Below are positions 7,058 through 27,814 of a DNA stretch of 44,271 bases, piece after piece; the first letter of the stretch is position 1, and each line of letters opens with the position of its first letter. This DNA is from Deltaproteobacteria bacterium. Lineage in GTDB: Bacteria > SAR324 > NAC60-12. The position numbers and the translations under genes were made by a program. The stretch lies in contig JAYOTF010000027.1 in assembly GCA_038150265.1 (NCBI GenBank), positions 1 to 44,271 of the forward strand, given 5' to 3'. The notes beneath the pieces were generated by a model, which was not told the DNA's origin, searched no databases, and worked only from the letters and a program-made list of their open reading frames with translations.

Positions 7058-7159
7058 AATCCTGCCAGGTGCGTTACGGTAGCAAGACTCTATTGGACGA
7101 AGATTGCGGCCGCGTTAGGGTTTCTGAAGGAAGGAAGGGGTGGGGCAGCAGAAGGGGCG

Positions 7160-7369: not shown

Positions 7370-7409
7370 TGAGTCTCCAGGGGGGGCGTGGGCGTCACAC
7401 GGTTCCAGG

Positions 7410-8234: not shown

Positions 8235-8246
8235 AAACAGGCCTCC

Positions 8247-11771: not shown

Positions 11772-11792
11772 AGGCGTTCAGGGGAAGGAGGT

Positions 11793-12758
11793 TCAGTGGC
11801 GGGAGGAGGTGTTCCGGACGGCCTGACGCTCCAGGAGGAAGACCAGCAGGAATCCCACAACGGCTGTGGCCACGGCAAAGGCAAAGCTGGCGTTGAGGTC
11901 CGGAAGGATGTTTTCTTCGCGGAGGACGTACTCCTTGCCCCGGATGAGCTGCGTCTCCAGCGTGATCTTCCAGGGCCACACCTTGCGCATGGCCCCAATC
12001 ATGATGCCGGTGAGCAGCGCCATGGTGGTGGCGTGGTAGCGGGCCAGCGCAAAGCGAAGCACCCGGGAGAAGCCGCCCAGGCCCACCGCACAGCCAGCCG
12101 CAAAGACGAGCAACACGGCGAAGCTGCCTTCGGCAAAGGGGTTCCGGAGGGCCTCGGTGATGAAGGCGTACTTGCCGAGGATGAGCAAGATGAAGGAGCC
12201 GCTGATTCCGGGAAGGATCATGGCGCAGATCGCGATCATGCCACAGAGGAAGATGAACCACGACTCTTCCGGAGTCCAGACGGGGATCAGGCCGGTCAGG
12301 TTCCAGCCAAACAGTGCCCCCAGGACCAGCCAGAGGCTTCCGGATCGCCAGTCCTGAATCTCGCGGCTGAGGAAGAGGATGGATGCGGTGATCAGTCCAA
12401 AGAAGAGGGACCACGTGGGCACCGGATGCGTGTTGAGCAGGTAGTGCATCAGGCGCGCAGTGCTGACCAGGGCAAGGAGTACCCCGAGGCCAAGCACCAT
12501 CAGGAAGCGCAGATGCACCTGAGCCAGCGACTCCTTGAGGCGTCCGCGCAGAAGCAGGCCGATGGAGGAGACATTGATGGAGGTGATGGCCGTCAGCAGG
12601 TGCTGATAGATTCCCGTGATGAAGGCGATGGTCCCTCCGGAGACACCGGGGATGATGTCAGCGGTGCCCATACCGGCTCCCTTGAGGAACAGCATCAGCG
12701 CTTCCTTCGGGGTCTGCGGGCCCGGACTGTTCATCCAGGCAGCTTTCCAAGTGGTCAT
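11793..12758 (-). CDS. DUF368 membrane protein (undecaprenyl-phosphate translocase family)
   Basis: KGAGMGTADIIPGVSGGTIA and repeated AMILPGISGS motifs. Confidence 0.9.
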   Translation of the reverse strand: MTTWKAAWMNSPGPQTPKEALMLFLKGAGMGTADIIPGVSGGTIAFITGIYQHLLTAITSINVSSIGLLLRGRLKESLAQVHLRFLMVLGLGVLLALVSTARLMHYLLNTHPVPTWSLFFGLITASILFLSREIQDWRSGSLWLVLGALFGWNLTGLIPVWTPEESWFIFLCGMIAICAMILPGISGSFILLILGKYAFITEALRNPFAEGSFAVLLVFAAGCAVGLGGFSRVLRFALARYHATTMALLTGIMIGAMRKVWPWKITLETQLIRGKEYVLREENILPDLNASFAFAVATAVVGFLLVFLLERQAVRNTSSRH

Positions 12759-12764
12759 GCGGCG

Positions 12765-13106
12765 TCAGACAGAAGAGGTGGCGGCCAGGCGTTGTGCCCC
12801 ATCTCCCCCGTGGCAGTTCGGGGTCTGGTGGATCTGCTGTCCGGAGGCTTCCCACTGCGTGGGCGTCTGCGCACGTACCGAGAGGGCGTGCACGCCGCCG
12901 GCAAGCTCCTCGTGCAGCACCTGGTACACCGCCTGGTGCCGCTCCCGGAGCTTCATGCCCTCAAACTGGGCAGAGACAACGGTCACCTTGAAGTGCGACT
13001 CCGCTCCCGGAGGGACGTTGTGCTTGTGGCTTTCGTTCTCGACCTCCAGCGCCTGCGGCTGAAAGGCTTCCGTCAGCTTGGTCTCAATGGATTTTTGAAT
13101 CTGCAT
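12765..13106 (-). CDS. bolA: BolA family protein
   Basis: NESHKH, ESHFKVTVVS, RHQAVY, GVHAL. Confidence 0.92.
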   Translation of the reverse strand: MQIQKSIETKLTEAFQPQALEVENESHKHNVPPGAESHFKVTVVSAQFEGMKLRERHQAVYQVLHEELAGGVHALSVRAQTPTQWEASGQQIHQTPNCHGGDGAQRLAATSSV

Positions 13107-13114
13107 AGTTTTTT

Positions 13115-13873
13115 TCAGATGCGGGCGCCGCCACTGATTTCAATGACTTCCCCGGTGAAGTAGTCGTTTTTGAGGATGAACAGCACCCCGTCGGAGATTT
13201 CCCGGGGCTCGGCAAAGCGCTTGAGGGGAACCTGTTCGGTAAAGATGGATTTGACCTCTTCCTTGAGCGAGAGGACCATTTCAGTGGCCGTGAAGCCGGG
13301 CGCCACCGCGGCGGCGCGGATGCCGTAGGGAGCCAGTTCCTTGGCCCAGAGGACGGCCATGGCGGCCACTCCGGCCTTGGCTGCCGAGTAGTTGCTTTGC
13401 CCAAAGTTGCCGTGCCGGGCGATGCTGGAGATGTTGACGAGCACCCCGGGCTTCTTCAGCTTCACCAGCTGGGCGGCCGCCTCACGACCACACAGAAAGA
13501 CGCCCGTCAGGTTGACGTCAATCACGGCCTGCCACTTCTCGAGGGGGAACTTGCGGATCTCGCCATTCTTTTCCCGGACCAGCAGGTTGTCACGCAGAAT
13601 GCCGGCATTCTGGATGCTGGCATCAAGGGTTCCGAAATCGGCGACGACTTGCTCGTAGAGCTGCTCCACGTCGGCTTCGTCAGCAACATTGACGGCGTAG
13701 CTGCGGGCTTCGGCTCCGGTGGCCGTGACCTCTGCGAGGGCGTTGGCGAGGGCGTCTTCGTTGCGGTCGACCAGGGCGAGGCGGGCGCCTTCTGCGGCAC
13801 AGTCCAGCGCAAACTGCTTGCCCAGTCCCTGAGCGGCACCGGTGATGACGATTACTTTGTTGGTGAGGTCCAT
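13115..13873 (-). CDS. SDR oxidoreductase (3-oxoacyl-ACP/CoA reductase-like)
   Basis: TGAAQGLG, NAGILRD, GNFGQSNYSAAK. Confidence 0.9.
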   Translation of the reverse strand: MDLTNKVIVITGAAQGLGKQFALDCAAEGARLALVDRNEDALANALAEVTATGAEARSYAVNVADEADVEQLYEQVVADFGTLDASIQNAGILRDNLLVREKNGEIRKFPLEKWQAVIDVNLTGVFLCGREAAAQLVKLKKPGVLVNISSIARHGNFGQSNYSAAKAGVAAMAVLWAKELAPYGIRAAAVAPGFTATEMVLSLKEEVKSIFTEQVPLKRFAEPREISDGVLFILKNDYFTGEVIEISGGARI

Positions 13874-14247
13874 GCGTTCGGTCCAGTTGAAAGTCAGGAG
13901 TCCTCGTTGGGCCAGCGGGTTCCGGGAAGCGCTTCGAGCGAGCAGCGAAGGCCCGGAATTCCGGACGCGCCAAGAGGAGGTACCCTGAAATGGTAGGAGC
14001 CTCGGAGGAACATCACAAAATTATTCGTCACGCCTCCTGACTCAGTCCGGGATTCGTCTTCTGGGCAAGGGGCGGCCAGGTTCCCTCCCGAGTCCTGATT
14101 CTCCGGAGCCGGAGCCGTCATCGTGCAAGTTGACTTGAGGCAAACAGTTATGTAAAGATCACATTTAACTTTTTTTGTTACAAAAGGCAGAAAAGCATCA
14201 GGGCGCTCTGCCTGAGTAACGTGTTTGAAGCAAGCACAGGGAGCTAA

Positions 14248-15564
14248 ATGATGAAAAAGATGATCCTTGGGGCCATTGCTGCAGGAGCGATGGCCTTGAA
14301 TCCGTTGGCTGCGATGGCCGAGACCGAAGTTCAGTTCTGGCACGCCTTCACGGGGCGGTTGGGGGAGCTGGTGGCAACGCAGGTGGAGGAATTCAACGCC
14401 AGCCAGAGTGACTACAAGGTGGTGGCCAGCCACAAGGGCAACTACTCGGAGACGCTCAATGCCGGCATCGCCGCCTTCCGGGCGGGGGAGCAGCCGCACA
14501 TCCTGATGGTGTTCGAGGTGGGAACCGCCACAATGATGGCCGCCAAGGGGGCGATCAAGCCGGTGTACGAAGTGATGGCCGAAAGTGGCGCCGAGTTTGA
14601 TCCGGATGCGTACATTGGTGCCGTGAAGGGGTACTACACGACGACCGACGGCCAAATGCTGTCGTTGCCGTTCAACTCGTCAACGCCTGTGCTGTGGGTC
14701 AACCGTGATGCCCTGCGAGGCGCCGGGATTGATCCGGATGTGGACCTGAGCACCTGGCAAAAGGTGGAGGGCGTGCTGGACCAGCTGAAGGCGGCGGGCC
14801 ATGCCTGCCCGCTGGTCACGGCCTGGCAGAGCTGGATCCACCTGGAAAACCTCTCGGCCTACCATGATGTGCCGTTTGCCACGCAGGAGAATGGCTTTGC
14901 CGGGCTGGACACGGAGCTGGTGTTCAACAGCAAGGCGCAGGTGGCTCACATTGCCAAGATGGGAGAGTGGGCGAAGGAAGGCAAATTCATCTACACCGGT
15001 CGCCGCAACGAAGGCGGAGCCAACTTCCGGGCAGGTGAGTGTGCGCTCTTTACCGAAAGCTCAGCAGGCTATGCCGGCATCAGTTCGGAAGCCAAGTTCG
15101 AGTTTGGCGTCCGTCCGCTTCCGTATTGGGAAGGCGTGGGGAATGCTCCGCAGAACACCATCATCGGTGGCGCTTCGCTTTGGGTGATGGCGGGTCATGA
15201 CCGTGAGGAGTACAAGGGCGTCGGGGCCTTCCTGTCGTTCCTGTCCTCCACTCCGATCCAGGCCAAGTGGCACCAGGATACGGGCTACCTGCCCATCACG
15301 ATGGCCGCAGGGGAAGCCACCCGTCAGGCCGGTTTCTACGAAGAAAAGCCGGGCACCGATGTGGCCGTGAAGCAGATGACCGCCAAGGCTCCTACGGCTA
15401 ATTCCAAGGGGCTGCGGTTGGGGTCGTTTGACCAGATCCGTGGCATCATTGACGAAGAGCTGGAAGCCGTCTGGGCGGGTGACAAGTCCGCACAGCAGGC
15501 CATGGACAGCGCCGTGGAGCGCGGCAACCAACTGCTTCGGCGGTTCGAGCGGGCCAACCGCTGA
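14248..15564 (+). CDS. ugpB: sn-glycerol-3-phosphate ABC transporter substrate-binding protein
   Basis: Signal peptide, FWHA, KGNYSET, FEVGTATMM, PFNSSTP, IIGGASLW. Confidence 0.92.
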   Translation: MMKKMILGAIAAGAMALNPLAAMAETEVQFWHAFTGRLGELVATQVEEFNASQSDYKVVASHKGNYSETLNAGIAAFRAGEQPHILMVFEVGTATMMAAKGAIKPVYEVMAESGAEFDPDAYIGAVKGYYTTTDGQMLSLPFNSSTPVLWVNRDALRGAGIDPDVDLSTWQKVEGVLDQLKAAGHACPLVTAWQSWIHLENLSAYHDVPFATQENGFAGLDTELVFNSKAQVAHIAKMGEWAKEGKFIYTGRRNEGGANFRAGECALFTESSAGYAGISSEAKFEFGVRPLPYWEGVGNAPQNTIIGGASLWVMAGHDREEYKGVGAFLSFLSSTPIQAKWHQDTGYLPITMAAGEATRQAGFYEEKPGTDVAVKQMTAKAPTANSKGLRLGSFDQIRGIIDEELEAVWAGDKSAQQAMDSAVERGNQLLRRFERANR

Positions 15565-15576
15565 GCCTGTAACCTA

Positions 15577-15607
15577 AACCGGGACGGCTCTGCGGGGCCT
15601 CCCGGTT
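15577..15607 (+). terminator. Stem-loop after ugpB (mRNA stabiliser or partial terminator)
   Basis: AACCGGGA...TCCCGGTT inverted repeat between binding-protein and permease genes. Confidence 0.5.
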
Positions 15608-15628
15608 GTTCCGTGTGAAGGGAGCGAG

Positions 15629-16510
15629 ATGAAGAAACGCGTGACCTTTAGCGGCTGGATGCTACCGCTCGCGTTGATTGCGCCTCAGGTCTTCATTTCG
15701 GCGGTTTTCTTTTTCTATCCAGCGGGTCAAGCGGTCTGGCAGTCACTGTTCATTCCAGACCCGTTTGGGCTGTCCACCCAGTTTGTGGGGCTGGGGAACT
15801 TCGAGTACCTTTTCAGCGATCGTCACTACCGGGCGTCCTTTGTGACAACGGCCTTGTTTTCGCTGCTGGTCACCCTGGCCTCCATGCTTCCGGCCCTGTT
15901 CCTCGCCGTGCTGGCGGATCGCCTGATCCGGGGCTCGGGGGTGTACCGGACGTTACTGATCTGGCCCTATGCCGTGGCTCCGGCTGTGGCTGGGGTGCTC
16001 TGGATGTTCATGTTCAACACGCGCGTTGGCGTGGTTTCGTGGTACCTGGGGCAACTGGGCTACGACTGGAATCATGTGCTGAACGGAGGCGAGGCGATGG
16101 GACTGGTGGTGGTTGCTTCAGCCTGGGGGCGGATCAGTTACAACTTCCTCTTCTTCTTTGCTGCGCTCCAAGCGGTCCCGCGCTCGGTGATTGAGGCGGC
16201 TGCCATTGACGGCGCTCGCTTCTGGCGCCGCTTCTTCACCATTGTGCTCCCCCTTCTCTCTCCAACGACCTTCTTCTTGCTGGTGGTCAACGTGGTCTAT
16301 GCCTTTTTCGAAACCTTCGGAGTGATCCACACCATCACTGCCGGTGGACCGCAACAGGCCACCACGATCCTGGTGTACAAGGTGTTTGCTGACGGGTTTG
16401 TGGGGCAGGACCTGGGCTCGTCTTCAGCCCAGTCCGTGATTCTGTTGGTCGTGGTGGGGCTGCTGACGGTGTTTCAGTTCAAGGTGGTTGAAAAGCGGGT
16501 GCACTACTGA
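15629..16510 (+). CDS. ugpA: G3P ABC permease
   Basis: EAAAIDGA loop; [16 protein letters not shown]; order in operon. Confidence 0.92.
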
Positions 16511-17364
16511 TGGCGGAACGGCAGGGCATGGTCGAAAAGCGAGGAACCGGGCTGTGGCTCACGCATGTGCTGATGATCCTGGGCGTGCTGGTGATCTTCT
16601 TCCCGATCTGGATGGCGTTTGTGGCCTCAACGGTCACACAGCCGGAGATCGTTCGCCCGCCAATGCCGCTGTGGCCCGGGGATCGGTTTTGGGAAAACTA
16701 CACGGCGGCCCTGTTTTCCGGGGTCAATGTGCCGGTGGCGACCATGCTCCTGAATTCGCTGATCATGGCGGTCGGGATTGCTGTCGGCAAGATCATCATC
16801 TCGCTGCTCTCCGCCTTTGCGATTGTGTACTTCCGGTTTCCTGGGCAGGGGGTGTTCTTTTGGATGATCTTCATCACGCTGATGCTGCCGGTGGAGGTGC
16901 GGATTGTGCCCACCTACGAAGTGGTCGCCGGCTTCGGGATGCTCAACAGCTACGCCGGGCTAATCTTTCCGCTCATTGCCTCGGCGACTGCGACCTTCCT
17001 CTTCCGGCAGTTCTTCCTGACGATTCCCGACGAGTTGGCAGAGGCGGCACGGGTGGATGGCGCACGGCCCATGCGGTTCTTCATTGATATCGTGGTGCCC
17101 ATGAGCCGGACGAACGTGGCGGCTCTGTTTGTGATTCTGTTCATTTACGGCTGGAACCAGTACCTCTGGCCCCTGCTGATTACCACCGATCCCGAGATGA
17201 ATACGATCGTGATGGGCATCAAGCAGATGTTCCCTTCAGGCGATGACGTGGCAGAGTGGCCGGTCATCATGGCGACCTCCATCCTGGCAATGATTCCGCC
17301 GGTGATTGTGGTGGTCTCCATGCAGAAACTCTTCATCCGTGGCCTTGTCGACGGCGAGAAATAA
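16510..17364 (+). CDS. ugpE: G3P ABC permease
   Basis: [29 protein letters not shown]. Confidence 0.92.
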
Positions 17365-17367
17365 CCA

Positions 17368-18414
17368 ATGGCAACCGTATCATTCAAGAACCTGCGCAAG
17401 CGTTTTGACGCAACTGACGTGATCCACGGGATCGATATGGAAATCGCAGATGGCGAGTTCATTGTGATCGTGGGGCCCTCCGGCTGCGGCAAGTCCACCT
17501 TGTTGCGGATGGTGGCTGGACTGGAAACCGTGACCGCTGGCGAGGTTCTGATTGGAGGAGAGCGGGCAAACGACAAGGAGCCGATGGACCGCGACATCGC
17601 CATGGTGTTCCAGAATTATGCGCTTTACCCCCACATGACCGTTGCGCAAAACATGGGCTACGGGCTGAAGATTGCGGGGATGCCCAAGCAGGAGATTGCC
17701 GCCAAGGTGGAGGACGCTGCGCGGCTTCTGCAACTGGAGGGACTGCTGAACCGGCGGCCCAAGCAGCTTTCGGGAGGCCAGCGACAGCGGGTAGCGATGG
17801 GACGCGCCATTGTGCGCGAGCCCTCCGTCTTTCTCTTTGATGAGCCGCTCTCGAACCTGGACGCGAAGCTGCGGGTGCAGATGCGACTGGAGATCAAGGA
17901 GTTGCAGTCAAAGCTCGGCATCACGGCACTGTACGTCACCCACGACCAGGTGGAGGCCATGACCATGGCCGACCGGATGATTGTGATGAATGAAGGCCGG
18001 GCGGAGCAGATCGGGACCCCGCTTGAAGTCTATGAGCGGCCGCAGTCCCTGTTTGCGGCACAGTTCATCGGCAGCCCCGCGATGAACGTGCTGGAGGCAC
18101 AGATTGAAGGGGGACAGGTGCTGCTGGGGAAAGTACCGGTGGCGTCCACTGCTGCGCGCGCCGGCGCGGTGAAGCTGGGAATCCGTCCGGAGCATGTGCA
18201 ACCAGATGACTCCGGACCGCTGGCGATGGAGCTACGGCTTTCCGAGCCGCTGGGGGCCAACACCCTTTTGCATGGTCGGCTCACTGAAAGCGGGGTCGCC
18301 TTCACAGCGAGCCTCAATGGGGTGCATCAGACCCGTGGCGGGGGCATGATGCGGTTTGCTGTTGCCCCTGAAGACTGCCACCTGTTTGATCCGGAAACCG
18401 GCCGCCGCTTGTAA
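17368..18414 (+). CDS. ugpC: G3P/sugar ABC ATP-binding protein
   Basis: GPSGCGKS, LSGGQRQR, FDEPLSNLD, C-terminal TOBE-like region. Confidence 0.92.
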   Translation: MATVSFKNLRKRFDATDVIHGIDMEIADGEFIVIVGPSGCGKSTLLRMVAGLETVTAGEVLIGGERANDKEPMDRDIAMVFQNYALYPHMTVAQNMGYGLKIAGMPKQEIAAKVEDAARLLQLEGLLNRRPKQLSGGQRQRVAMGRAIVREPSVFLFDEPLSNLDAKLRVQMRLEIKELQSKLGITALYVTHDQVEAMTMADRMIVMNEGRAEQIGTPLEVYERPQSLFAAQFIGSPAMNVLEAQIEGGQVLLGKVPVASTAARAGAVKLGIRPEHVQPDDSGPLAMELRLSEPLGANTLLHGRLTESGVAFTASLNGVHQTRGGGMMRFAVAPEDCHLFDPETGRRL

Positions 18415-18613: not shown

Positions 18614-20077
18614 TCAGAGAGACGCGAGGTCGCGGGGAAGCGCTTCAAACTGCTGGAAGCGCTGCTGAAGGTAGTCCTGGAGAGCCGCCTCGGGCTCCAG
18701 CACCCGCTCCGCAGGTGGCTTGGAGTGGAGAGTTTGCTCCAGAGGGAGTCCGGAGGCGGCTTGCCCCAAACGAACGGCACCGAGCGCTGCAGAGACCTCT
18801 CGGTGCTGAGCGAGCACCAGGGGGCGGTCGAGGAGGCAGGCGATCATGGTGCCCCAGAGCAGGTTCCGGGCGCCGCCTCCAACGAGTCGGATTTCGCCAA
18901 GGGTCAGGTGGTGCTGTTGCTGAGCGCGCAGGCATTCATGGACTTGAAAGGCGATGCCTTCGAGGATGGACCACATCAGGTGGGCCCGGTTGGTGGAGAG
19001 CGAAATGCCGGTGAGGAGGCCCCGGGCGCCTGGCTGCAGGTAGGGGGTCCGGATGCCATTGAAGTTGGGGCGCATGAGCGGAAGGGCTTCTTGCATCAGG
19101 CGTCCGGTGAGCGCCTGAGCCTCTTCAGCCAGGGTTGCGACCGGAGTCTGTGTGAGCTGGCTGAGCCAGTCCACGGAAGCTGTGGCACTCATGACCACCC
19201 CCATGGAAAGGAACGCCTCTGGCACCACGTGGGCACTGGTCATCACCGCAATCTCTGGAGCCGGTCGGAAGGTGGGGTCCACAATGCAGGTGACCGCAGA
19301 GGTGCCGAGGCTGATGATGGTGTCACTCGGTTGCGTGACCCCGACTCCGAGCGAGCCGACCATGTTGTCGCCGCCTCCAGCCGCAACCGGAAGCCCCGGT
19401 TTCATTCCCCAGCGCTGCGCCAGTTCTGCACGCAGGCCCCCCGCAGCTTCCCAGGAGTTCACCAGCGGAGGAAGCCGATCCAGTGACCAGCCGGCAGCGT
19501 CACAAAGCGCAGGATCCCAGGTTCCGGAAGCACAGTCCAGGAGCATCAGACCAGCAGCGTCGCTGGGGTCACTGGCCCGCTCTCCTGTCAGCCAGAGCCG
19601 GATGTAGTCTTTGGGCAGAAGGAGGCAGTCGGTGTGCTCCAGAACTTCCGGCTCATGCTGTGCCAGCCAGAGGAGCTTGGGGGCGCCCATTCCCGGATCT
19701 GGAATGCCATTGGCCCGGAAGCCGAGGTCCGGAACCCGCTGCAGGAGGGTGGCACATTCGGTGGTGGCGCGTTCGTCGTTCCAGAGCAGGGTCGCCCGAA
19801 TGGGCTGGTCGGCCGAGTTGATGAGGACGGGGCCCAGCATGTGTCCGGAGAGGCCGATGGCGGCAACGTCGGCCAGGGCGTGGGGAACCGTCTGGTGCAG
19901 GTGCGTGAAGCACTGCTCAATCGCGTCAATCCAGGAGTCGGGATGCTGCTCGCTCCACCCGGGGGCAGGGCGGGCCGTGGTGATGGGGGCATTGGCTTCG
20001 GCCAGAATCTCATGAGCCTCCCCTGCAATCACGACCTTGACGCCTGAGGTGCCGAGGTCAATCCCCACAAAAGTCAT
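18614..20077 (-). CDS. FGGY-family carbohydrate kinase (xylulokinase-like)
   Basis: GIDLGTSGVK, LWND, KDYIRLWLTG, GGGDN, VGGGA. Confidence 0.9.
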   Translation of the reverse strand: MTFVGIDLGTSGVKVVIAGEAHEILAEANAPITTARPAPGWSEQHPDSWIDAIEQCFTHLHQTVPHALADVAAIGLSGHMLGPVLINSADQPIRATLLWNDERATTECATLLQRVPDLGFRANGIPDPGMGAPKLLWLAQHEPEVLEHTDCLLLPKDYIRLWLTGERASDPSDAAGLMLLDCASGTWDPALCDAAGWSLDRLPPLVNSWEAAGGLRAELAQRWGMKPGLPVAAGGGDNMVGSLGVGVTQPSDTIISLGTSAVTCIVDPTFRPAPEIAVMTSAHVVPEAFLSMGVVMSATASVDWLSQLTQTPVATLAEEAQALTGRLMQEALPLMRPNFNGIRTPYLQPGARGLLTGISLSTNRAHLMWSILEGIAFQVHECLRAQQQHHLTLGEIRLVGGGARNLLWGTMIACLLDRPLVLAQHREVSAALGAVRLGQAASGLPLEQTLHSKPPAERVLEPEAALQDYLQQRFQQFEALPRDLASL

Positions 20078-21054
20078 GACGCCTGCGTGCGATCCAGTTT
20101 CAGCATTTCGCGAGCGGTGTCCTCATCTGTGATGAGGATGCTGCTCAGGCCTGCCTTGAGGGCGGCCCGGATGATGGGGATCTTGTGGCGCCCACCTGCA
20201 GCCAGGATGACGTTGCTCATCTTCTGGATGTCGGCAAGCTGGATGCCGATGATGCGCTCATTGATGGGGTGGTCAATGGGGTGGCCGTCCTGATCCAGCA
20301 TGAAGCCCAGGATGTCTCCAACGGCGCCACGCTCCAGCAACTCATCGATGGTGACGCCTTTGGGAAGGCCGTAGCGGATCAGCAGCGCTCGGCGCGACAT
20401 GTCTCCAGCGGCCATGCAGAGGGCATCGACCGAGATGATCTTGCGGATGGCTTCCTTGAAGACGTCGAGTTCACAAATGATGTCTCGGCTGTGCTTGGAG
20501 TCCGCATAGAGTGGAGCGGTCAGGTAGCTGTGCTGGGCGTTGCACAGCTCGGCAAGGCGGGTGGTGATCTCGAAGCTGTTGATTTCCGAGCCCTTGGAGA
20601 GGCCCCCCATCACCGAGACGATCTCGAGGTTCGGACGGTTCAGGGGTTCCATGGACCGGGTGGCGTGGCTGAGGGTTCCCCCCCACGACATGCCAAACAG
20701 ACGAATCTCCGGACGGGACAGGTACTGATTCAGGAAGCTCCCCAGGGCGGTGCCAACGAGGAGCTGGACGTTATCCGGACTCCCGGCGGGCGCAACGTGG
20801 GCCTCGCTGAGCTGATAGGTCGCCTTGAGCTGGCTCTCCAGCTCGGCACAGGGCGCGTAGTCGGAGTTGATGGACACCCGCAGCAGCCCCCGGCGCCGGA
20901 CGTCTCCCAGGGCCTTGTTGACCCGAAGGCGAGTGACACCGAAGCGCTCGGCCGCTGCCGCCTGAGTGAGGCCCTCGATGTAACAGGCCCAGGCAACGCG
21001 GACAAGAAAGCGTTCTTCTTCGTCACTCTGTAAAGACCGGAGGGCTCGACTCAT
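20074..21054 (-). CDS. SorC/DeoR-family sugar-binding transcriptional regulator
   Basis: N-terminal AWACYIEGLTQ HTH, GMSWGGT, GAVGDILG, LITDE. Confidence 0.92.
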   Translation of the reverse strand: MSRALRSLQSDEEERFLVRVAWACYIEGLTQAAAAERFGVTRLRVNKALGDVRRRGLLRVSINSDYAPCAELESQLKATYQLSEAHVAPAGSPDNVQLLVGTALGSFLNQYLSRPEIRLFGMSWGGTLSHATRSMEPLNRPNLEIVSVMGGLSKGSEINSFEITTRLAELCNAQHSYLTAPLYADSKHSRDIICELDVFKEAIRKIISVDALCMAAGDMSRRALLIRYGLPKGVTIDELLERGAVGDILGFMLDQDGHPIDHPINERIIGIQLADIQKMSNVILAAGGRHKIPIIRAALKAGLSSILITDEDTAREMLKLDRTQAS

Positions 21055-21089
21055 GGGGCTGCAAGGATGAAGGGTTACCGAAGTGGTCG

Positions 21090-21914
21090 TTACTTGACTG
21101 CACCCATGGTTAAGCCCTGAACCAGCTGCTTGGAGGCGATGAGCGCAAAGATGATGACGGGGACCACGATCAGGGTGGAGGTGGCCATGATCTTTCCGTA
21201 AGGCAGGCTGTATCCCTCCATGAAGCTTACCGCCATGGCTGGTGCCGTCTTGGCATTCGTTCGGGTGAGGACCAGCGCAAACATTAGCTCGTTCCAGGAA
21301 AAGATAAAGGAAAAAATGCTGGAAACGGCCACCCCCGGTGCCGCCAGCGGCAGGCACACCGAGCGGAAAATGCGCCACTGCCCGGCTCCGTCCACAATGG
21401 CCGCCTCGTCCAGCTCCTTCGGAATGGCCCGGAACTGATCGGTGCAGATCCAGATCACAATTGGAAGGTTGAAGGTGAGGTAGATGAGGATCAGCACCAG
21501 GTGCGTGTCAAGCAGCTTGAGGTTCCGGACAATCAGGAAGAAGGGCAGAGCCAGCACGATGGGGCTGACCATGCGGTTGGTGATGAACCAGAACCAGAGG
21601 TCCTTCTTGCCCCGGAACTCGAAGCGGGCCAGGGCGTAGGCGGCCGGAGTTCCCAGCAAGACGGCGACGAGGGTGGTGCAGACGGCCACAATCAACGAGT
21701 TGATCAGGTTCTGCCCCACCCCATCCTTGAAGAGCACCTCTGTGTAGTTGCTGAAGGTGACCTCAAAGATCCAGGCGGGTGGAGACTGCAGGGCCACAAT
21801 CTGGTCCTTCAGGCTGGTGGTCACCATCCAGTAAAAGGGGAAGATGCAGAACAGGATGATGAGCAGCAGCAGCCCACCCTGCATGGCCAAGGAGGTTTTT
21901 CGATAAGAGGGCAT
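21090..21914 (-). CDS. Carbohydrate ABC permease
   Basis: EAAIVDGA loop, FIFSWNE; start at ATG 21914. Confidence 0.92.
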   Translation of the reverse strand: MPSYRKTSLAMQGGLLLLIILFCIFPFYWMVTTSLKDQIVALQSPPAWIFEVTFSNYTEVLFKDGVGQNLINSLIVAVCTTLVAVLLGTPAAYALARFEFRGKKDLWFWFITNRMVSPIVLALPFFLIVRNLKLLDTHLVLILIYLTFNLPIVIWICTDQFRAIPKELDEAAIVDGAGQWRIFRSVCLPLAAPGVAVSSIFSFIFSWNELMFALVLTRTNAKTAPAMAVSFMEGYSLPYGKIMATSTLIVVPVIIFALIASKQLVQGLTMGAVK

Positions 21915-21921
21915 GGGCCTA

Positions 21922-22800
21922 CTAATTGTTGACTTCGTTGTAAAAGACGCGGATGTACATCCGACTGAGCACAATGGTGATGATCAGCAGAATGATGGCC
22001 TGGGCCGAGGCGAGCCCCTGGTCAAAGGCCCGAAAGCCCACCCGCTGGATCATGAGGCTGATCAACTCGGTCGCCGATCCGGGGCCGCCGCGGGTCATGG
22101 TAAACACCATGTCAAACAGCTTGAGCGTGTCAGCCGTCCGGAGGATGAGGATGGCGGTGAGCCCGGGGATGAGAAAGGGCAGCTGAACATGCCAGAGGAT
22201 GGTCACCCAGTTGGTGGTTTCCAGGCGGGCCGCTTCTTCAATCTCAGAGGGAACCGTGGTGAGCCCGGCCAGCAGGACCAGCGCACAGAACGGCGCCCAC
22301 TGCCAGACGTCCCAGAAGGCGACTGCAATGAAGGCGTTGTCCGGATCCCCAATCCAGTTGATGGGGTCGATGCCCAAAAAGCCAATCAGCTGATTGACGA
22401 CGCCATACTTGATATTGAACATCACCTGTCCCAAGAGGCCGACAACCGAGTAGGTGGTTGCCATGGGAATGACCAGAGACAGGCGGGTCAGCGTTTTGAA
22501 AAAAGTCAGTCCAGGCTTGTGAATCAGGAGCGCCACGCCGAGGCCAATGAAGATCTGCAGCGGCAGCACAATGATCAGCAGCACAAAGGTGCGCTGCATC
22601 GCTTCCCAAAAGACCGGATCGGTGAGCACAAAGGCGAAGTTGTCGAAGCCGATGAACTTGACCTTCCGGAGCTTGGTCAGGTTGTAGTTGTGAAGCGAGG
22701 TGTAGACGGCAAACAGCAAGGGAACGATGCCAATGACCGCCAGGGAGATGATGGAGGGTGCCAGGAAGGCGAAGATGGTGCTTCTTCGAACTTTTCCCAT
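21922..22800 (-). CDS. Carbohydrate ABC permease
   Basis: DVWQWAPF, EEAARLE, TRGGPG. Confidence 0.92.
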   Translation of the reverse strand: MGKVRRSTIFAFLAPSIISLAVIGIVPLLFAVYTSLHNYNLTKLRKVKFIGFDNFAFVLTDPVFWEAMQRTFVLLIIVLPLQIFIGLGVALLIHKPGLTFFKTLTRLSLVIPMATTYSVVGLLGQVMFNIKYGVVNQLIGFLGIDPINWIGDPDNAFIAVAFWDVWQWAPFCALVLLAGLTTVPSEIEEAARLETTNWVTILWHVQLPFLIPGLTAILILRTADTLKLFDMVFTMTRGGPGSATELISLMIQRVGFRAFDQGLASAQAIILLIITIVLSRMYIRVFYNEVNN

Positions 22801-22825
22801 GAGGGAATCCCGAAAGGGGTGAACA

Positions 22826-22853
22826 GGAGGTCCTCGTTGCGGGGAGGACCTCC
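22826..22853 (-). terminator. Stem-loop after binding-protein gene
   Basis: Perfect 10-bp inverted repeat GGAGGTCCTC/GAGGACCTCC. Confidence 0.55.
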
Positions 22854-22876
22854 CCAGAGAATGGACTCGTCAGTAC

Positions 22877-24217
22877 TTACTGAGCGAGGGGCTTCTCACC
22901 AGAGTAGTACCCAGCGTCGTCCAGGACGGCTTCCATGCGCTCACCGAGGATGCGGGCGCCTTCTTCGGTGGAAACTTCGTTGAGCATCATCTTGGTGCCC
23001 CACTCCTGAACGATTTCGGTAATTTCCGGCCACTCGGCAAAGCGTGGGCGGAACTCCGGAACGCCGTCCTGCCAGCTTTCGACCAGGTCCGGAACGAAGT
23101 CATACTGCTGAGCGACCCCTGGCAGGTTGTACACCGACTGGCGAGCCGGGACGCCTCCCATTTCGAGGTACTGCTTGGACTTCTCCTTCGAGGTCACCCA
23201 CTGGATGAAGAGCCAGGCGGCGCCTTGTTCCTTTTCGCTGGCCTGCGTTGTCACGGCCATGGAGAACCCTCCCAGAGCCGGCTTCCGCCCGTTCGGACCC
23301 ATGGGCTCCGGAGCGATGGCGAGGCAGTCTCCAATCTTGGAGGTCTTCGGATCCTTCAAGGTGGAGTAGAAGGAGGACCACTCGGTGATGATGGCGACAT
23401 CGCCCTGTGCCAGCGCGTTGACGGTCTCAGCGTGGTCGTACGACACAATGCCCGGGGGCATGTACTGCATCAGTTCCTGACGGAACTTGAGCCCGGACTG
23501 GCTGGCCGGAGAGAGGAGGTTGGACCGGAAGTTCTCATCCAGGAACGACCCGCCAAACGGCCAGAGCACGCGAGCAAAGCTGTCTGCCGACTGCGTCTCA
23601 TTGCGCTTGGACTGCAGCGCGTAGGCGTACTTGCCGTCTTTGGTCAGCGCCGGACCATAGACGTACATCAGCTCGGCCCAGGTTCTGGGGGGCCGGTCGA
23701 ATCCAGCCTGCTCCAGCATGCAGCGGTTATAGAACATCAAGCCGGAGTAGTTGTCAAACGGCAGGCCGTAGATCTTCCCGTTCCAGCCGCCAAAGGCGTT
23801 GAGGACCAGCGGGAAGAAGTCATTCATGTCCAGATTCGGATCCTTGAGGGCCGGATTCGAGGTGAACTTCTCCACCGGCTCGACCCAGCCGTTCTCCACA
23901 AAGTTTCCGATCCACACCAGGTCGATCAGGGCAATGTCCAGGTCACCCCCTGCGACAAAGTCACGGACCTGCTCCCCCAGGGCATTCTCATAAGGGTGCT
24001 TGATGATGTTGACCTTGATCCCCGTCTTCTTCTCAAACTCGGGCAGCATCTTCTCCGCTGCCTCATAACCCGGACGCAGCAGGAAGACCACGTCCACCGT
24101 GGTTCCGGAATACGGCTTGGCAGCTTCCTCCAAGGACCAGGCCGCGGCGGTCTGGACCATGCTCAAGGCGACCCCTGCGGTGATCGCCAGACTCTTTAGC
24201 ATCGCTCTAATCTTCAT
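22877..24217 (-). CDS. Sugar/polyol ABC substrate-binding protein
   Basis: Signal peptide (AAA/W), FEKKTGIKV, YGLPF, AWLFIQW; start ATG 24217. Confidence 0.9.
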   Translation of the reverse strand: MKIRAMLKSLAITAGVALSMVQTAAAWSLEEAAKPYSGTTVDVVFLLRPGYEAAEKMLPEFEKKTGIKVNIIKHPYENALGEQVRDFVAGGDLDIALIDLVWIGNFVENGWVEPVEKFTSNPALKDPNLDMNDFFPLVLNAFGGWNGKIYGLPFDNYSGLMFYNRCMLEQAGFDRPPRTWAELMYVYGPALTKDGKYAYALQSKRNETQSADSFARVLWPFGGSFLDENFRSNLLSPASQSGLKFRQELMQYMPPGIVSYDHAETVNALAQGDVAIITEWSSFYSTLKDPKTSKIGDCLAIAPEPMGPNGRKPALGGFSMAVTTQASEKEQGAAWLFIQWVTSKEKSKQYLEMGGVPARQSVYNLPGVAQQYDFVPDLVESWQDGVPEFRPRFAEWPEITEIVQEWGTKMMLNEVSTEEGARILGERMEAVLDDAGYYSGEKPLAQ

Positions 24218-24246
24218 ATAGGCCTCATGAGAGCAAGTTGTGATTG

Positions 24247-24326
24247 ACGTTACCATAGTAATGTGCAAAATAAACACATGTTACAAAAGTAACGTGACCA
24301 ATGTTTATGTAACACAATCGTAATGT
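24247..24326. promoter_or_regulatory. Three phased operator-like sites, consensus AYGTTAC-N4-GTAAYGT
   Basis: Sites at 24247, 24278 and 24309 (31-bp period; third left arm degenerate) in the AT-rich divergent promoter region of a SorC-family locus. Confidence 0.7.
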
Positions 24327-24431
24327 CAATGAAAAAATAACAATTGGAGAGAAAGGGGGGATTCAGTATGCTAGTGCTGAACGACAGGAGCCGCGGCTTC
24401 TGAGTTACTGACTGAGTTGATAAAGGAAAAG

Positions 24432-25763
24432 ATGAAAGAAATGAGTCTAGAGCAGGTCATCCAGGAAGCGGTCCGGCGGTCCAGGACGATTGATAGCCTG
24501 GAAATCGGGAGCGGTGCCCTGAGGCAGGTCGGAGCGCTGGTCCAGCAGCACTTCCCCCGCCGACCGGCTCTGTTGATTGCCGACGAGAACACCTGGAAGG
24601 TGGCCGGTCCGCAGGTTGAGCAGTCGCTGCGGGATGCCTCCGTGGAGGTCAAGAAGCTGGTGCTGCCCGGATCCCCGCGCCTCAAACCGACGACCGCCCT
24701 GGGCAATGAGCTGGTCAGTGAAATGGGGACGTCCACTCCGGTGGCCATTGGTTCGGGCGTGATCAACGACCTGGTCAAGTACGCTGCTCATCAGGCCAAC
24801 ACCCGCTACTGCTGTGTCGCGACTGCGGCCTCCATGGATGGCTACGCGTCTGCTGGTGCCGCAATGATGTACGACGGCTTCAAGAAGACCATCCCCTGCA
24901 CGGCGGCTCAGGTGGTGGTGGCGGACTCCGACATCATCCGCGAGGCTCCGCTGGAAATGGCCGGATGGGGCTATGGCGATCTCGCTGGAAAGGTTCCGGC
25001 CGGCGCCGACTGGATTTTGGCCGATGCCTTTGGCCTGGAGCCAATCGATGATGTGGCGTGGCCGCTGGTTCAGCATCACTTGCGGGCCTGTCTGGAGAAG
25101 CCCCATGAGCTGCAGGAGCAGAAGCCCGAGGCTTTTGCCCGCCTCTTCATTGGCCTGACGGCCACCGGATTGGCGATGGAGTTTCACAACACCTCCCGCC
25201 CGGCTTCCGGATCCGATCACCAGATTGCTCACCTTTGGGAGATGAGTCAGCATCAGCACGCAGGTCGCCCGGTGTCTCATGGGGCGTGTGTGGCAATTGG
25301 GTGCTTGACAGTCCTGGCCTTATACGATTGGCTACTCAAGCAGGAAACCCTGGGCTTTGATCCGGAACAGGCGTGGGCGGCACGGGGGTCTCTTGAAAGC
25401 AAGGAGGCCGAGATCCGTCAGGTGTTCCCGCAGACGGAGATTGCCGATAAAGCGATCCAGGAGGTCACCGCCAAGCACCCCAGTGATGACGAGCTGAAGG
25501 CCCGGCTGCTCAAGCTGCAGACCACCTGGCCGGAGCTGCGCCAGCGGTTGCGTCAGCAGCTGATGTCGCTGGAGGAAATGCAGGAGCACCTGAAGCAGGC
25601 TGGGGCGCCTGCGCGGGCGGCCGACATTGGCATTGATCCGGAGCGTCTGCGTGAGACCACCCGAATCGCCCGCTTCCTGCGGAGTCGTTACACGGTTCTG
25701 GACTTGCTGGACGAGACCGGACTTCTGGAAGAAGCGATCGCCCACGCTCCTCTTCCCTACTGA
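24432..25763 (+). CDS. sn-glycerol-1-phosphate dehydrogenase (AraM/EgsA) family protein
   Basis: [41 protein letters not shown]; start could be 24441. Confidence 0.85.
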
Positions 25764-25785
25764 AACTGGGCGGGAGGAGCCAAAC

Positions 25786-26346
25786 ATGATGTCACTGACG
25801 GACCTGGCAACGCAGGCCCTGGAGGAAATGAAGGCCTCGTTGCTGGCCATTCGTGAAGAGGAGCTGCAGCAGGTGCTGCAGGAGATTGCGCAGGCCCAAC
25901 GCATCGCGCTCCATGGAGTGGGACGCGAAGGCCTGATGATCAAGGCGCTGGCCATGCGGCTGTATCACCTGGGACTGGATGCGCACGTGGTCGGCGACAT
26001 GACGACCCCTCCCATCGGTGAGGGCGATCTGCTGATCGTCAGCGCCGGGCCCGGAGGGTTTTCCACCATCTCGGGCCTCATCGGCGTGGCGCGCTCCGCT
26101 GGGGCCCGGACCCTCTGCTTCACGTCTGTGCCGTCCGGAGCCTCCGCGGCCCAGTGTGACGTCATCATGGAACTCCCCGCCCAAACCATGGCCAACGATC
26201 AGGGGGGCGCTGTGTCCATCCTTCCCATGGGATCGCTTTATGAAGGAGTGCAGTACGTGATCTACGAACTCCTCATCCTTCGGCTCCGGGAGCACCTGCA
26301 AGAGGCTCCGGAGCAAATGCGAGCCCGCCACACCAACCTGGAGTAG
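25786..26346 (+). CDS. SIS-domain protein, 6-phospho-3-hexuloisomerase-like
   Basis: [30 protein letters not shown]-terminal RHTNLE; GGGAGG RBS. Confidence 0.85.
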
Positions 26347-26351
26347 GCACC

Positions 26352-27122
26352 ATGCCGGACTGGACACAGCGTTTTTCCCTCGATGGCCGCAAGGCCTTCA
26401 TTACCGGAGCCTCCAGGGGCATTGGCGCAGAGATCGCCCGGGTGTTTGCGGATGCCGGCGCGGACATCGTCGCAGTGGGACGAGACCGGAAGGACCTGGA
26501 ATCCGTTGCGCAGGACGTCCGAGACCGAGGTCGGCAGTGCCTCGTTCTGGAAGCCGACCTGGCCTCTCCGGAGGGTCCGCAGGAAGCGGCTCAAACCGCC
26601 TTGACGCAATGGGGCACCCTGGACATTCTGGTGAACAACGCCGGAATCGCCCGCATTCACCCCGCACTGGAGCTGCCGCTGGAGGCGTGGGAAGAGACAA
26701 TGGCGGTCAACGTTCGGGCGCCGTTTCTGCTCGCTCAGGCCCTCGCTCCGAAGATGATCGAACAGCGCTGGGGCAAGATCATCAACATTTCCTCCCAGAC
26801 CGGGGTCATTGCCCTGGAAGACCACGCCGCCTATGCCACCTCCAAAGGCGCCCTCAATGCCCTCACCAAGTCCCTCACTGCCGAGTGGGCCCAGCACAAC
26901 ATTCAGGTCAATGCCATCTGTCCGACCGTGATCCTCACCCCGATGGGGCTCGAGGTCTGGGGAGACCCTGCCAAGAGTCAGCCGATGCTCGACAAGACCC
27001 CTCTGGGGCGCTTTGGAAAGCCGGTTGAAGTGGCGGACATGGCGCTGTACCTGGCCTCTCCAGCCTCGGAATTGGTCAATGGTGCGGTGCTGATGATCGA
27101 AGGGGGCTTCACCGCTGTCTAG
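26352..27122 (+). CDS. SDR oxidoreductase (polyol/ketose dehydrogenase-like)
   Basis: TGASRGIG, NNAG, YATSK, NAICPTV. Confidence 0.9.
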   Translation: MPDWTQRFSLDGRKAFITGASRGIGAEIARVFADAGADIVAVGRDRKDLESVAQDVRDRGRQCLVLEADLASPEGPQEAAQTALTQWGTLDILVNNAGIARIHPALELPLEAWEETMAVNVRAPFLLAQALAPKMIEQRWGKIINISSQTGVIALEDHAAYATSKGALNALTKSLTAEWAQHNIQVNAICPTVILTPMGLEVWGDPAKSQPMLDKTPLGRFGKPVEVADMALYLASPASELVNGAVLMIEGGFTAV

Positions 27123-27197: not shown

Positions 27198-27758
27198 TCA
27201 GGCGGCTGCGTTGCGGGTGGCGCGGGAGATCTGGATCAGGGGTTGGGGCCACTGCAGGTAATCCTGCCACTGCGCATCCGGAATCCGCAGGGGGAGGGTC
27301 TTCGCAATGGTCACCATCTGCCAGTAATTGGGTTCAATCGGGTGGGTGAGCGGGCGGAGGAACCGAGACCCCTTGTCGAGGTTGCAGGGGTAGCAGGCGG
27401 CCACCACATTGTCCCAGCTCGTGGCGCCTCCCTTGCTCTTGGGGATGACGTGGTCAATCGTCAGGTGCTCGGTCGCATAGTGCTTCCCGCAGTACTGACA
27501 GTGGAAGCGATCCCGGAGGTAGATGTTGCGACGGGTGAAGTGCACGCGGCTGGACCGCCGGACGTACCGGGTCATCACGACCACGCTGGGCATGGGCATG
27601 GAAAACCGTTGCGACCGACAGGGCCAGTCGGGGTAGGTCCGGAGGATGCTGACCTTTTCCAGGAAGTACGCCTTGACGGCTTGTTGCCAGGTCAAAACAC
27701 TCAGAGGTGCCAGGGTGAGGGGCTGATGGTCCTGATTAAGGAGCAATACATCGCTCAT
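27198..27758 (-). CDS. HNH endonuclease
   Basis: RD.FHCQYCG, TIDHVIPKSKGG, NVVAACYPCNLDK. Confidence 0.9.
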   Translation of the reverse strand: MSDVLLLNQDHQPLTLAPLSVLTWQQAVKAYFLEKVSILRTYPDWPCRSQRFSMPMPSVVVMTRYVRRSSRVHFTRRNIYLRDRFHCQYCGKHYATEHLTIDHVIPKSKGGATSWDNVVAACYPCNLDKGSRFLRPLTHPIEPNYWQMVTIAKTLPLRIPDAQWQDYLQWPQPLIQISRATRNAAA

Positions 27759-27814
27759 TGGCACGTACTCGCGGAAAAGGCCACATCCAAGGGGAGGAGA
27801 CGCCTCCCCAGCGG

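Follow-up and report, generated by a model that had tools for sequence, protein, structure and literature searches.

A conserved divergon with an AraM-like dehydrogenase in a SAR324 deltaproteobacterium is a candidate locus for small-polyol catabolism

A 44,271-nucleotide stretch of DNA (contig JAYOTF010000027.1 of assembly GCA_038150265.1; hereafter the window) from a deltaproteobacterium of the SAR324 lineage contains a divergon of eight genes encoding an FGGY kinase (K1), a SorC-type regulator, the binding protein and two permeases of a CUT1 ATP-binding cassette (ABC) importer, an AraM-like dehydrogenase of the sn-glycerol-1-phosphate dehydrogenase (G1PDH) family, a SIS-domain isomerase resembling 3-hexulose-6-phosphate isomerase (PHI), and a short-chain dehydrogenase/reductase (SDR). 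The eight genes form a single conserved unit, which is read here as a SorC-repressed divergon for importing and catabolizing a small acyclic polyol, a tetritol route being the most likely. This reading is held at about even odds (a probability near 0.5), and we infer the substrate, the order of the steps, and their stereochemistry. An earlier note on this DNA had named the same set of families, from the importer and SorC regulator to the FGGY kinase, the G1PDH-family and PHI-like enzymes, and the SDR, and every one of them was recovered where it had been placed. The genome that holds the window is referred to as G000, and two genomes of the same genus are referred to as G001 and G002.

Conservation of the divergon

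An alignment of 20 relatives of the dehydrogenase was used to scan one genome per GTDB species. At least 586 dehydrogenase relatives matched, and the best 80 loci were retrieved and searched by tblastn with the eight window proteins; open reading frames (ORFs) in high-GC loci were called heuristically with a GC3 filter, and the per-gene recurrence counts from clustering these ORFs are lower bounds. All eight genes were present in 34 of the 80 loci, mainly from Rhodobacterales and Hyphomicrobiales such as Tabrizicola, Rhodovulum, Ruegeria, Devosia, and Chelativorans, and gene order and strands were identical in 34 of 34. That conservation excludes chance juxtaposition and bears out the view that the genes are one functional unit, built like a cluster for the uptake and catabolism of a polyol or rare sugar. 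The dehydrogenase, SIS, and SDR genes occurred together in 46 of the 80 loci, with many of the remainder being short contigs. Two further genes belong to the unit in these clusters. A MalK-type ATPase gene lies within 8 kb in 64 of the 80 loci and sits, in the alphaproteobacterial relatives, between the binding-protein and dehydrogenase genes. A gene for a HAD-IIA phosphatase (NagD/AraL-type) usually follows the SDR gene (HAD within 8 kb in 46 of 80) and is missing in the own-genus version and in several complete alphaproteobacterial clusters. Outside this 10-gene set (the eight, the ATPase, and the HAD protein), no gene recurs in more than 5 of 58 window-type loci, and the unit is therefore closed.

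Within the genus of the window the cluster was present in all three genomes, with dehydrogenase identities of 100, 84, and 61%, and the divergent arrangement is kept in both G001 and G002. A search of 41 genomes of the lineage found the cluster beyond the genus once, in a genome of another genus; the other positives were weak (about 30% identity or less), the better ones resembling a paralogue encoded on contig C48 of G000 that is described below. The binding protein and permeases are mostly 70 to 85% identical to alphaproteobacterial copies (72 to 85% for the MalG/UgpE-like permease and 59 to 78% for the MalF/UgpA-like permease when compared with cluster copies), and the corresponding values are 46 to 58% for the dehydrogenase and 44 to 57% for the kinase. 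Because the cluster is patchy in its own lineage and its importer is close to alphaproteobacterial copies, these comparisons suggest horizontal acquisition of the divergon. Three records of the plasmid collection held relatives, none of them with a window-type cluster.

Proteins encoded by the divergon

The modeled structure of the dehydrogenase (AlphaFold2, pLDDT 93.9) had Bacillus subtilis AraM (9h4x; TM scores of 0.75 and 0.84) as its top fold match, followed by the G1PDH of Methanocaldococcus jannaschii (TMt 0.80). Residues D183, H263, and H283 are invariant in comparison with both proteins, and an SRPASGxEH-type motif aligns to SRPASGGEHHISH in AraM and to SRPASGSEHLFSH in the M. jannaschii enzyme; we take the three residues and the SRPASG motif region to be the metal ligands. 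In the ESM Atlas only clusters named "sn-glycerol-1-phosphate dehydrogenase family protein" were matched, and the score against the G1PDH model NF002022 was 157.9 bits, below the cut-off of 413. By its modeled fold and motifs the protein is a G1PDH-family enzyme, and its activity on any substrate is a prediction. G1PDH (EC 1.1.1.261) oxidizes the carbon adjoining CH2-O-P, with the stereochemistry of D-glycerol-3-phosphate. Since this chemistry takes place beside the phosphate, it would not yield D-arabino-3-hexulose-6-phosphate, and the 3-ulose that it could make would be a 3-tetrulose-4-phosphate.

AraM is the best match to the window dehydrogenase in both fold and sequence, and in both cases the gene shares an operon for sugar catabolism with those of an FGGY kinase and a CUT1 importer. 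AraM, a Ni2+-dependent G1PDH, is encoded together with AraL in the araABDLMNPQ-abfA operon, and a HAD-IIA phosphatase like AraL is also found in the relatives of the window cluster. Unlike AraM, the window dehydrogenase is about 50 residues longer, and the two are only 24% identical over the structural alignment (about 40% in the core, by hand count); we know of no SIS or SDR partner for AraM. One study reports that AraM is a proven G1PDH whose product feeds into heptaprenylglyceryl phosphate, a compound of unknown function, and that G1PDH homologues are present in 14 of 44 bacterial phyla (PMC5059525).

Over its full length the SIS protein aligns with YckF/HxlB of B. subtilis (1m3s; E value of 5.5e-31, about 40% identity by hand count), with which it has the LPMGSLxE and HxNLE blocks in common. 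It shares with the PHI of the ribulose monophosphate (RuMP) pathway its length, its fold family, and the LPMGSL(F/Y)E and RHTNLE blocks that are common to PHIs and kept in the SIS copies. It differs in scoring just below the cut-off of the PHI model TIGR03127 (154.2 to 154.9 bits against 160), in lacking a hexulose-phosphate synthase (HPS) partner, and in its loop, which reads SAGPGGFST where YckF has GSGSGET and other PHIs have SGSGET. The GSGSGET loop binds phosphate in SIS domains. Every cluster copy reads SAGPGx(F/L)(S/A/T)(T/S) at this position, and because the loop is replaced throughout, the SIS protein is probably not a true 3-hexulose-6-phosphate isomerase. The earlier note had described a PHI-like protein without its synthase, and this holds for the whole genome (97.8% complete), in which the best match to the HPS model TIGR03128 reached 34.2 bits against a cut-off of 200. 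The RuMP pathway was rejected on the same ground. Enzymes that move a carbonyl between C3 and C2 are few, and PHI is among them.

The SDR gave its top score, among 229 matching models, with the GolD/DthD model NF005309 (254.7 bits, below the cut-off of 286). Its closest solved relative is an "L-xylulose reductase" of Mycobacterium smegmatis (4egf; 217 bits, about 50% identity by hand count), and further relatives include galactitol dehydrogenase of Rhodobacter sphaeroides (2wdz) and human L-xylulose reductase (1pr9).

K1 scored 407.4 bits against the XylB model TIGR01312 (cut-off of 380.25) and 324.4 bits against PRK15027, the E. coli-type xylulokinase model (cut-off of 912). It is thus the only enzyme of the divergon to pass a curated equivalog cut-off, in one of two models, and the other enzymes are, on their scores, clear relatives below the cut-off. 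The closest solved relatives of K1 are the xylulokinases 5vm1 (316 bits) and 2itm (307 bits). Residues 75 to 87 of K1 read AIGLSGHMLGPVL, with the motif GLSGHMLG and the segment GHMLGP, where the aligned segment of 2itm (E. coli XylB) and 5vm1 is G(I/L)(A/S)GQMHGATLL; the departure from GLSGQMHG that the earlier note had singled out is therefore real. GQML or GHML occurs in all 44 K1-like kinases (at least 38% identity), making His-to-Leu the constant change. The GQMHG segment contacts the sugar, by analogy with the NQRET segment of glycerol kinase, and XylB phosphorylates the CH2OH adjoining a D-configured carbon. In G001 and G002 a second kinase gene abuts the SDR gene; its product has the canonical MHGATLL segment and scores 556 and 536 bits on TIGR01312. 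In two Rhodovulum loci (L043 and L045) a canonical xylulokinase gene lies about 0.9 kb past the SDR gene, after the HAD gene. Since a canonical XylB shares the same cluster in these genomes, K1 is, as far as sequence comparison goes, a functionally distinct paralogue of XylB and not a plain xylulokinase. No orthologue of the canonical XylB was found in G000, which has lost the second kinase.

The earlier note had spoken of an ABC importer, of which the divergon encodes the binding protein and both permeases but not the ATPase. No ATPase gene was found within it, nor in the G002 and G001 stretches (both searched only with UgpC, E value of 1e-20 or less). The UgpC protein of the neighboring ugpBAEC operon is only a candidate for powering the importer in trans. 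UgpC as the ATPase proper to the cluster was rejected, as it shares 56% identity with the ATPase encoded in the cluster of one relative (L001), compared with 70 to 85% for the permeases and binding protein and their counterparts. The adjacency of ugpBAEC is not kept in G002, where a FabG-like gene directly adjoins the kinase gene, and the operon was therefore inserted or rearranged in G000 only. The closest solved relative of the binding protein is 5iai (E value of 4.9e-43, 151 bits), whose structure entry contains ribitol (PMC8468352). The sorbitol/mannitol binder 4rya is a distant relative (68 bits). The binding protein is not UgpB, giving an E value of 7e-4 with the UgpB of the window.

The regulator ORF extends to position 21378, and homology begins with the ATG at 21054. 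PF04198 covers residues 174 to 427 of the long ORF, which also has an N-terminal DNA-binding part. Scores against the DeoR and LsrR models (150 and 145 bits) were each under the cut-off, and the protein is 78 to 91% identical in the same-genus genomes. An autoinducer-2 (lsr) locus was rejected, with the LsrK and LsrR models far under their cut-offs and the transporter being of the wrong type. An inverted-repeat search of the divergent spacer found the palindrome TTACAAAAGTAAC at positions 24281 to 24293, which together with two flanking spacer blocks is invariant in the three same-genus genomes, where the dehydrogenases are only 61 to 84% identical. The palindrome is a plausible SorC operator and the spacer the predicted promoter region. 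A promoter scan gave three sites against 1.6 ± 1.3 expected, which is not above chance, and the promoter and terminator scans together gave results at or under the chance level.

A putative tetritol route and its rivals

In the favored reading, the CUT1 system would import a polyol using an ATPase supplied from elsewhere, and the DthD/GolD-like SDR would interconvert the polyol and its ketose. K1 would phosphorylate the terminal CH2OH beside a D-configured carbon, as XylB does on D-xylulose, and the AraM-like dehydrogenase would work on the carbon beside the phosphate ester and interconvert polyol-phosphate and ketose-1-phosphate. The PHI-like SIS enzyme would then shift the carbonyl along the chain. 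With D-threitol as the substrate, the SDR would give D-erythrulose, the kinase D-erythrulose-4-phosphate, and the SIS enzyme D-erythrose-4-phosphate. Erythritol would be phosphorylated by K1 to D-erythritol-4-phosphate and oxidized by the AraM-like enzyme to D-3-tetrulose-4-phosphate, which is the same compound as L-erythrulose-1-phosphate; a PHI-type shift from 3-keto to 2-keto by the SIS enzyme would yield D-erythrulose-4-phosphate, on the way to erythrose-4-phosphate. Such a route would be the stereochemical mirror of Brucella EryA/EryB and would not need the EryC racemase. Tetritols are, as we infer from these chemistries, the shortest polyols on which the G1PDH, XylB, and PHI reactions could act in series toward a central metabolite. 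In the known pathways L-erythrulose-1-phosphate is isomerized to D-erythrulose-4-phosphate and then to erythrose-4-phosphate in the LerI/DerI steps (PMC10733421).

The polyol character of the substrate would be consistent with the ribitol-holding relative of the binding protein, the GolD/DthD family as the top match of the SDR, and its polyol- and ketose-reductase relatives. The layout parallels known clusters of a polyol ABC importer, a dehydrogenase, and an FGGY kinase. The link to tetritols in particular draws on the RpiB neighbors of dehydrogenase relatives in Chloroflexota and on Rubrobacter plasmids, which count in its favor. RpiB (PF02502) was not found in any of four host genomes, G000 and its relatives G001 to G003 (completeness of 93 to 98%), so that an isomerase encoded by the cluster would be needed. 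The specific tetritol route to erythrose-4-phosphate is put forward tentatively, with the odds against it.

Several points weigh against this reading. The last known tetritol step uses the RpiB-family enzymes DerI/EryI, the very family not found in the hosts; the SIS protein would need to carry out one or two isomerizations without precedent; and no role falls to the HAD phosphatase, whose gene 46 of 80 loci carry. The match of the binding protein to the ribitol binder is moderate, at 151 bits, and ribitol is a pentitol and not a tetritol. With a canonical xylulokinase gene at the SDR end of the cluster in two lineages, D-xylulose, and thus xylitol or D-arabitol, is an equally ready candidate. 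Several clusters that are complete in other respects (e.g., L017, L040, and L056) showed no K1 gene within 9 kb. The AraM-like gene also keeps company with glycerol and glycerophosphodiester genes and may act on glycerol-1-phosphate itself. Family scores fall below the curated equivalog cut-offs in every case other than that of K1 with TIGR01312, and all members of the cluster are known from sequences and models alone.

The company kept by more distant homologues of the dehydrogenase (40 to 45% identity) is varied and bears on several of these points. Reyranella has a K1-like kinase, a SorC regulator, a different CUT1 system, a glycerophosphodiesterase, and PhoD; Variovorax has the same set, in which a K1-like kinase was not found. 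Proteiniphilum combines the dehydrogenase with GlpF and a GlpK-type kinase (NQRET motif), Pedobacter with a HAD-IIA protein and an MFS transporter, and Chloroflexia with HAD-IIA, RpiB, FGGY, and glycerophosphodiesterase genes. Relatives with a glycerophosphodiesterase and PhoD numbered seven loci, and RpiB stands beside relatives in two Chloroflexota loci. On Rubrobacter plasmids the neighbors are a Zn-dehydrogenase, a DAK-family kinase, HAD-IIA, RpiB, FGGY kinases, and GpsA- and GlpD-like genes, and these clusters look like catabolic islands for a tetritol or glycerol. The two plasmid loci (L094 of Rubrobacter indicoceani and L095 of R. radiotolerans) each carry one or two genes annotated as sn-glycerol-1-phosphate dehydrogenase. 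In Cypionkella (L002), K1 and HAD genes stand alone with the dehydrogenase gene, beside a polyol operon of MalK, a mannitol-dehydrogenase-family protein, an SDR, and a CUT1 system. Six loci from Reyranella, Variovorax, and their kin (L055, L059, L060, L062, L067, and L077) hold the AraM-like dehydrogenase with SorC, CUT1, and glycerophosphodiesterase genes; PhoD is present in the three that were scanned against Pfam (L055, L059, and L067), and a GQML-type kinase is present in L055, L059, and L062 and was not found in L060, L067, and L077. Loci of this type, without SIS, SDR, or HAD genes, are candidate clusters for phosphodiester or teichoic-acid-type salvage.

A paralogous divergon lies on contig C48 of G000 itself (L083, positions 111 to 13997). 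Genes for a GFO-family oxidoreductase, an FGGY kinase with the GlpK motif, and a SorC regulator come first. Facing the kinase and regulator genes is one for a dehydrogenase paralogue (32% identical, with SNPGSMGEH in place of SRPASGSDH), after which come genes for a Cof-type HAD protein, an importer (two permeases and a binding protein), an SDR, and a MalK ATPase. The series ends with two aldolase genes, one FucA-like of class II and one for an aldolase-like protein, and a further FGGY kinase gene. The gene content suggests a route from a polyol-phosphate through a ketose-1-phosphate to dihydroxyacetone phosphate (DHAP) and an aldehyde. Across these loci, the recurring core is the dehydrogenase with a HAD protein and/or an FGGY kinase and SorC. 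Its setting is always one of polyol, glycerol, or sugar-phosphate genes, and the "finishing" enzyme differs from one setting to the next (SIS, RpiB, aldolase, or glycerophosphodiesterase). Part of the gene set may thus be a separate module, since the dehydrogenase occurs with HAD and FGGY genes in varied contexts.

A separate module is the premise of one rival explanation, in which the importer, SDR, and xylulokinase would form an ordinary pentitol cluster, running from xylitol or D-arabitol through D-xylulose to xylulose-5-phosphate or from ribitol through D-ribulose to ribulose-5-phosphate. An independent, widespread module would be made up of K1, the AraM-like dehydrogenase, and, in relatives, the HAD protein, and would serve either for glycerol-1-phosphate, as a redox valve from DHAP through glycerol-1-phosphate to glycerol with reentry, or for clearing dead-end polyol phosphates made by the kinase. 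The canonical XylB at the SDR end of the G001, G002, and Rhodovulum clusters speaks for a pentitol, as do the ribitol in the best solved relative of the binding protein and the resemblance of the SDR to "L-xylulose reductase." The isolated trio of Cypionkella, together with the dehydrogenase and HAD genes that occur without SIS or SDR in Pedobacter, Chloroflexia, and Rubrobacter and on contig C48, speaks for the module, which would parallel the araL-araM pair inside the B. subtilis ara operon. Yet the SIS gene, fixed between the dehydrogenase and SDR genes in 46 of 80 loci, would have no job on the way from a pentitol to xylulose-5-phosphate or ribulose-5-phosphate, G000 has no orthologue of the canonical XylB, neither the own-genus version nor several complete alphaproteobacterial clusters have the HAD gene, and the functions proposed for the module are themselves undescribed. 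This explanation is possible, with the balance of probability against it.

Two other explanations assign the locus to different substrates. If the AraM-like enzyme were a catabolic dehydrogenase converting glycerol-1-phosphate to DHAP, its substrate would be imported by the adjacent UgpBAEC or made from glycerol by K1, and the rest of the cluster would be accessory. In fold and motifs the enzyme matches AraM, a proven G1PDH (PMC5059525); ugpBAEC directly adjoins the kinase gene in the window, which also has phosphate-scavenging genes; and the distant relatives include the seven loci with a glycerophosphodiesterase and PhoD and the Proteiniphilum locus with GlpF and a GlpK-type kinase. A 2025 paper reports that a marine bacterium grows on glycerol-1-phosphate and that its UgpB binds this compound, and the table of regulated proteins lists no glycerol-1-phosphate or glycerol-3-phosphate dehydrogenase (PMC12718374). 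The Ugp adjacency is, however, specific to G000, with no Ugp recurrence in the 58 window-type loci with clustered flanks; the binding protein of the cluster is not UgpB-like; and the SIS and SDR proteins would be without a role on C3 substrates. Glycerol-1-phosphate catabolism is accordingly an improbable explanation. Still less credit is given to the route of the earlier note, in which a hexitol or rare hexose would be converted to D-arabino-3-hexulose-6-phosphate and then, by the SIS protein as a true PHI, to fructose-6-phosphate. The end-to-end alignment with HxlB, the score of 154.2 bits just under 160, and the conserved LPMGSL(F/Y)E and RHTNLE blocks agree with it; on stereochemical reasoning, oxidation of D-mannitol-1-phosphate or D-altritol-6-phosphate at C3 would give that hexulose, and the route is chemically possible for the SDR. 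But G1PDH-type enzymes act beside the phosphate and not three carbons off, no cluster copy keeps the GSGSGET loop, the kinase comes from the XylB (pentulose) lineage, and no gene specific to a hexose or hexitol recurs in the cluster. Of the general idea in that note, the polyol-import unit stands with the conserved gene set; the 3-ketose-phosphate route was drawn from family names, and its 3-hexulose-6-phosphate form is not supported.

Returning to the small-polyol reading, an extended form of it would make the divergon part of a "mirror-image" pathway. The XylB-derived kinase would make sn-glycerol-1-phosphate from glycerol and D-erythritol-4-phosphate from erythritol; only a G1PDH-type enzyme, and not GlpD, GpsA, or EryB, would oxidize these products, to DHAP and L-erythrulose-1-phosphate; and a PHI-derived ketose-ketose isomerase would feed the C4 product to erythrose-4-phosphate. 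This extension is unlikely as a whole.

Known systems and genomic surroundings

Tetritol pathways are known from M. smegmatis (DthD/EltD-LerK/DerK-LerI-DerI) and Brucella (EryA-EryB-EryC-EryH-EryI), with a pathway logic that is given in PMC10733421. They have in common with the divergon an FGGY kinase, a dehydrogenase acting beside a phosphate ester, and carbonyl-shifting isomerases. A SorC-type regulator (Brucella EryD), a DthD-like SDR, an ABC importer, and erythrose-4-phosphate as the expected product are further likenesses. Unlike in those pathways, the window dehydrogenase is a homologue of G1PDH and not of GlpD, with a predicted opposite stereochemistry that would make EryC unnecessary, and the isomerase is a PHI-like SIS protein in place of a TIM- or RpiB-family enzyme, in a host in which no RpiB was found. 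None of the eight genes encodes an RpiB, HPS, TIM-type, or GlpD-type partner. Polyol ABC operons, such as mtlEFGK-mtlD-mtlY of Pseudomonas and rbt/dal of Klebsiella, resemble the divergon in their CUT1 binding protein and two permeases, polyol dehydrogenase, XylB-family kinase, and dedicated repressor; the window adds the AraM-like dehydrogenase and the orphan PHI-like isomerase, and its kinase type has GQML/GHML and not GQMHG. Because at least one defining test went against each of the three enzymes (dehydrogenase, isomerase, and kinase), the cluster, on sequence grounds, resembles both the polyol ABC/dehydrogenase/FGGY operons and the ery/tetritol loci and is a member of none.

The earlier note knew of no described pathway with this combination, and no paper describing it was found in the full-text literature searched, in which queries for G1PDH with polyol and with erythritol gave little usable output; the text of PMC12780249 contained none of six terms for the cluster. 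Within that literature, a role of the AraM-like dehydrogenase and the orphan SIS protein in a polyol pathway is previously undescribed. The physiological role of bacterial G1PDH homologues is essentially unknown outside B. subtilis, and here such a homologue is locked into a catabolic divergon with identical gene order in at least 34 species, which makes its role testable with few substrates. If the tetritol or mirror-image reading were true, the cluster would add to the tetritol routes that lead to erythrose-4-phosphate a third one with different enzymes, put the PHI scaffold to a new use, and provide a catabolic fate for the glycerol-1-phosphate stereochemical series, bearing on how bacteria burn archaeal-type glycerol phosphate. 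The mirror-image pathway would in addition place an "archaeal" dehydrogenase family in bacterial catabolism, imply that both the specificity of the kinase and the activity of the isomerase are new, and explain why AraM-like genes ride in sugar operons. The pentitol explanation would leave an ordinary polyol operon with an unexplained yet widespread accessory module.

Table 1. Features of the divergon and its flanks, from the ORF listing and from Pfam and NCBIfam family scans of the window proteins
Feature	Positions	Strand	Remarks
Phytase-like esterase	30-2381		phosphate-scavenging stretch
Metallophosphoesterase	2625-3446		phosphate-scavenging stretch
Na/Pi cotransporter with PhoU domain	8247-10145		phosphate-scavenging stretch
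FabG-like SDR gene	13115-13873		on the far side of ugpBAEC from the kinase gene
Complete ugpBAEC operon	14248-18414		UgpB 567.7 bits (cut-off 411)
UgpC, MalK-type ATPase of ugpBAEC	17368-18414	+	NF008653 520.3 bits (cut-off 432)
FGGY kinase K1	18614-20077	-	487 aa; FGGY_N 187.9 bits, FGGY_C 94.1 bits (Pfam)
SorC/DeoR(Bsu)/LsrR-type regulator	20074-21054	-	326 aa from the ATG at 21054; PF04198 185.6 bits
ABC permease, MalG/UgpE-like	21090-21974	-	BPD_transp_1 64.3 bits (Pfam)
ABC permease, MalF/UgpA-like	21922-22800	-	BPD_transp_1 34.7 bits (Pfam)
CUT1 periplasmic solute-binding protein	22877-24277	-	SBP_bac_8 123.6 bits, also SBP_bac_1 (Pfam)
Divergent AT-rich spacer	24278-24431		154 bp; palindrome and GTAAC/GTTAC copies
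AraM-like G1PDH-family dehydrogenase (Fe-ADH_2)	24432-25763	+	443 aa; PF13685 116 bits
Orphan PHI-like SIS isomerase (HxlB-like)	25786-26346	+	186 aa; GGGAGGAG precedes the gene
Classical SDR, GolD/DthD kind	26352-27122	+	adh_short_C2 215.9 bits (Pfam)
HNH endonuclease ORF	27198-27764	-	188 aa; HNH_5 62.5 bits; between the SDR and aconitase genes

The phosphate-scavenging genes of the window lie upstream of the divergon (Table 1). On its downstream side the family scans identified an aconitase gene beyond the HNH endonuclease ORF. The HNH ORF is 92% identical in G002, where the canonical xylulokinase gene lies between it and the SDR gene. In G001 (L097, contig C10, positions 626 to 5324), the SDR and xylulokinase pair occurs twice in tandem with equal blast identities, which reflects either a recent tandem duplication or an assembly artifact.

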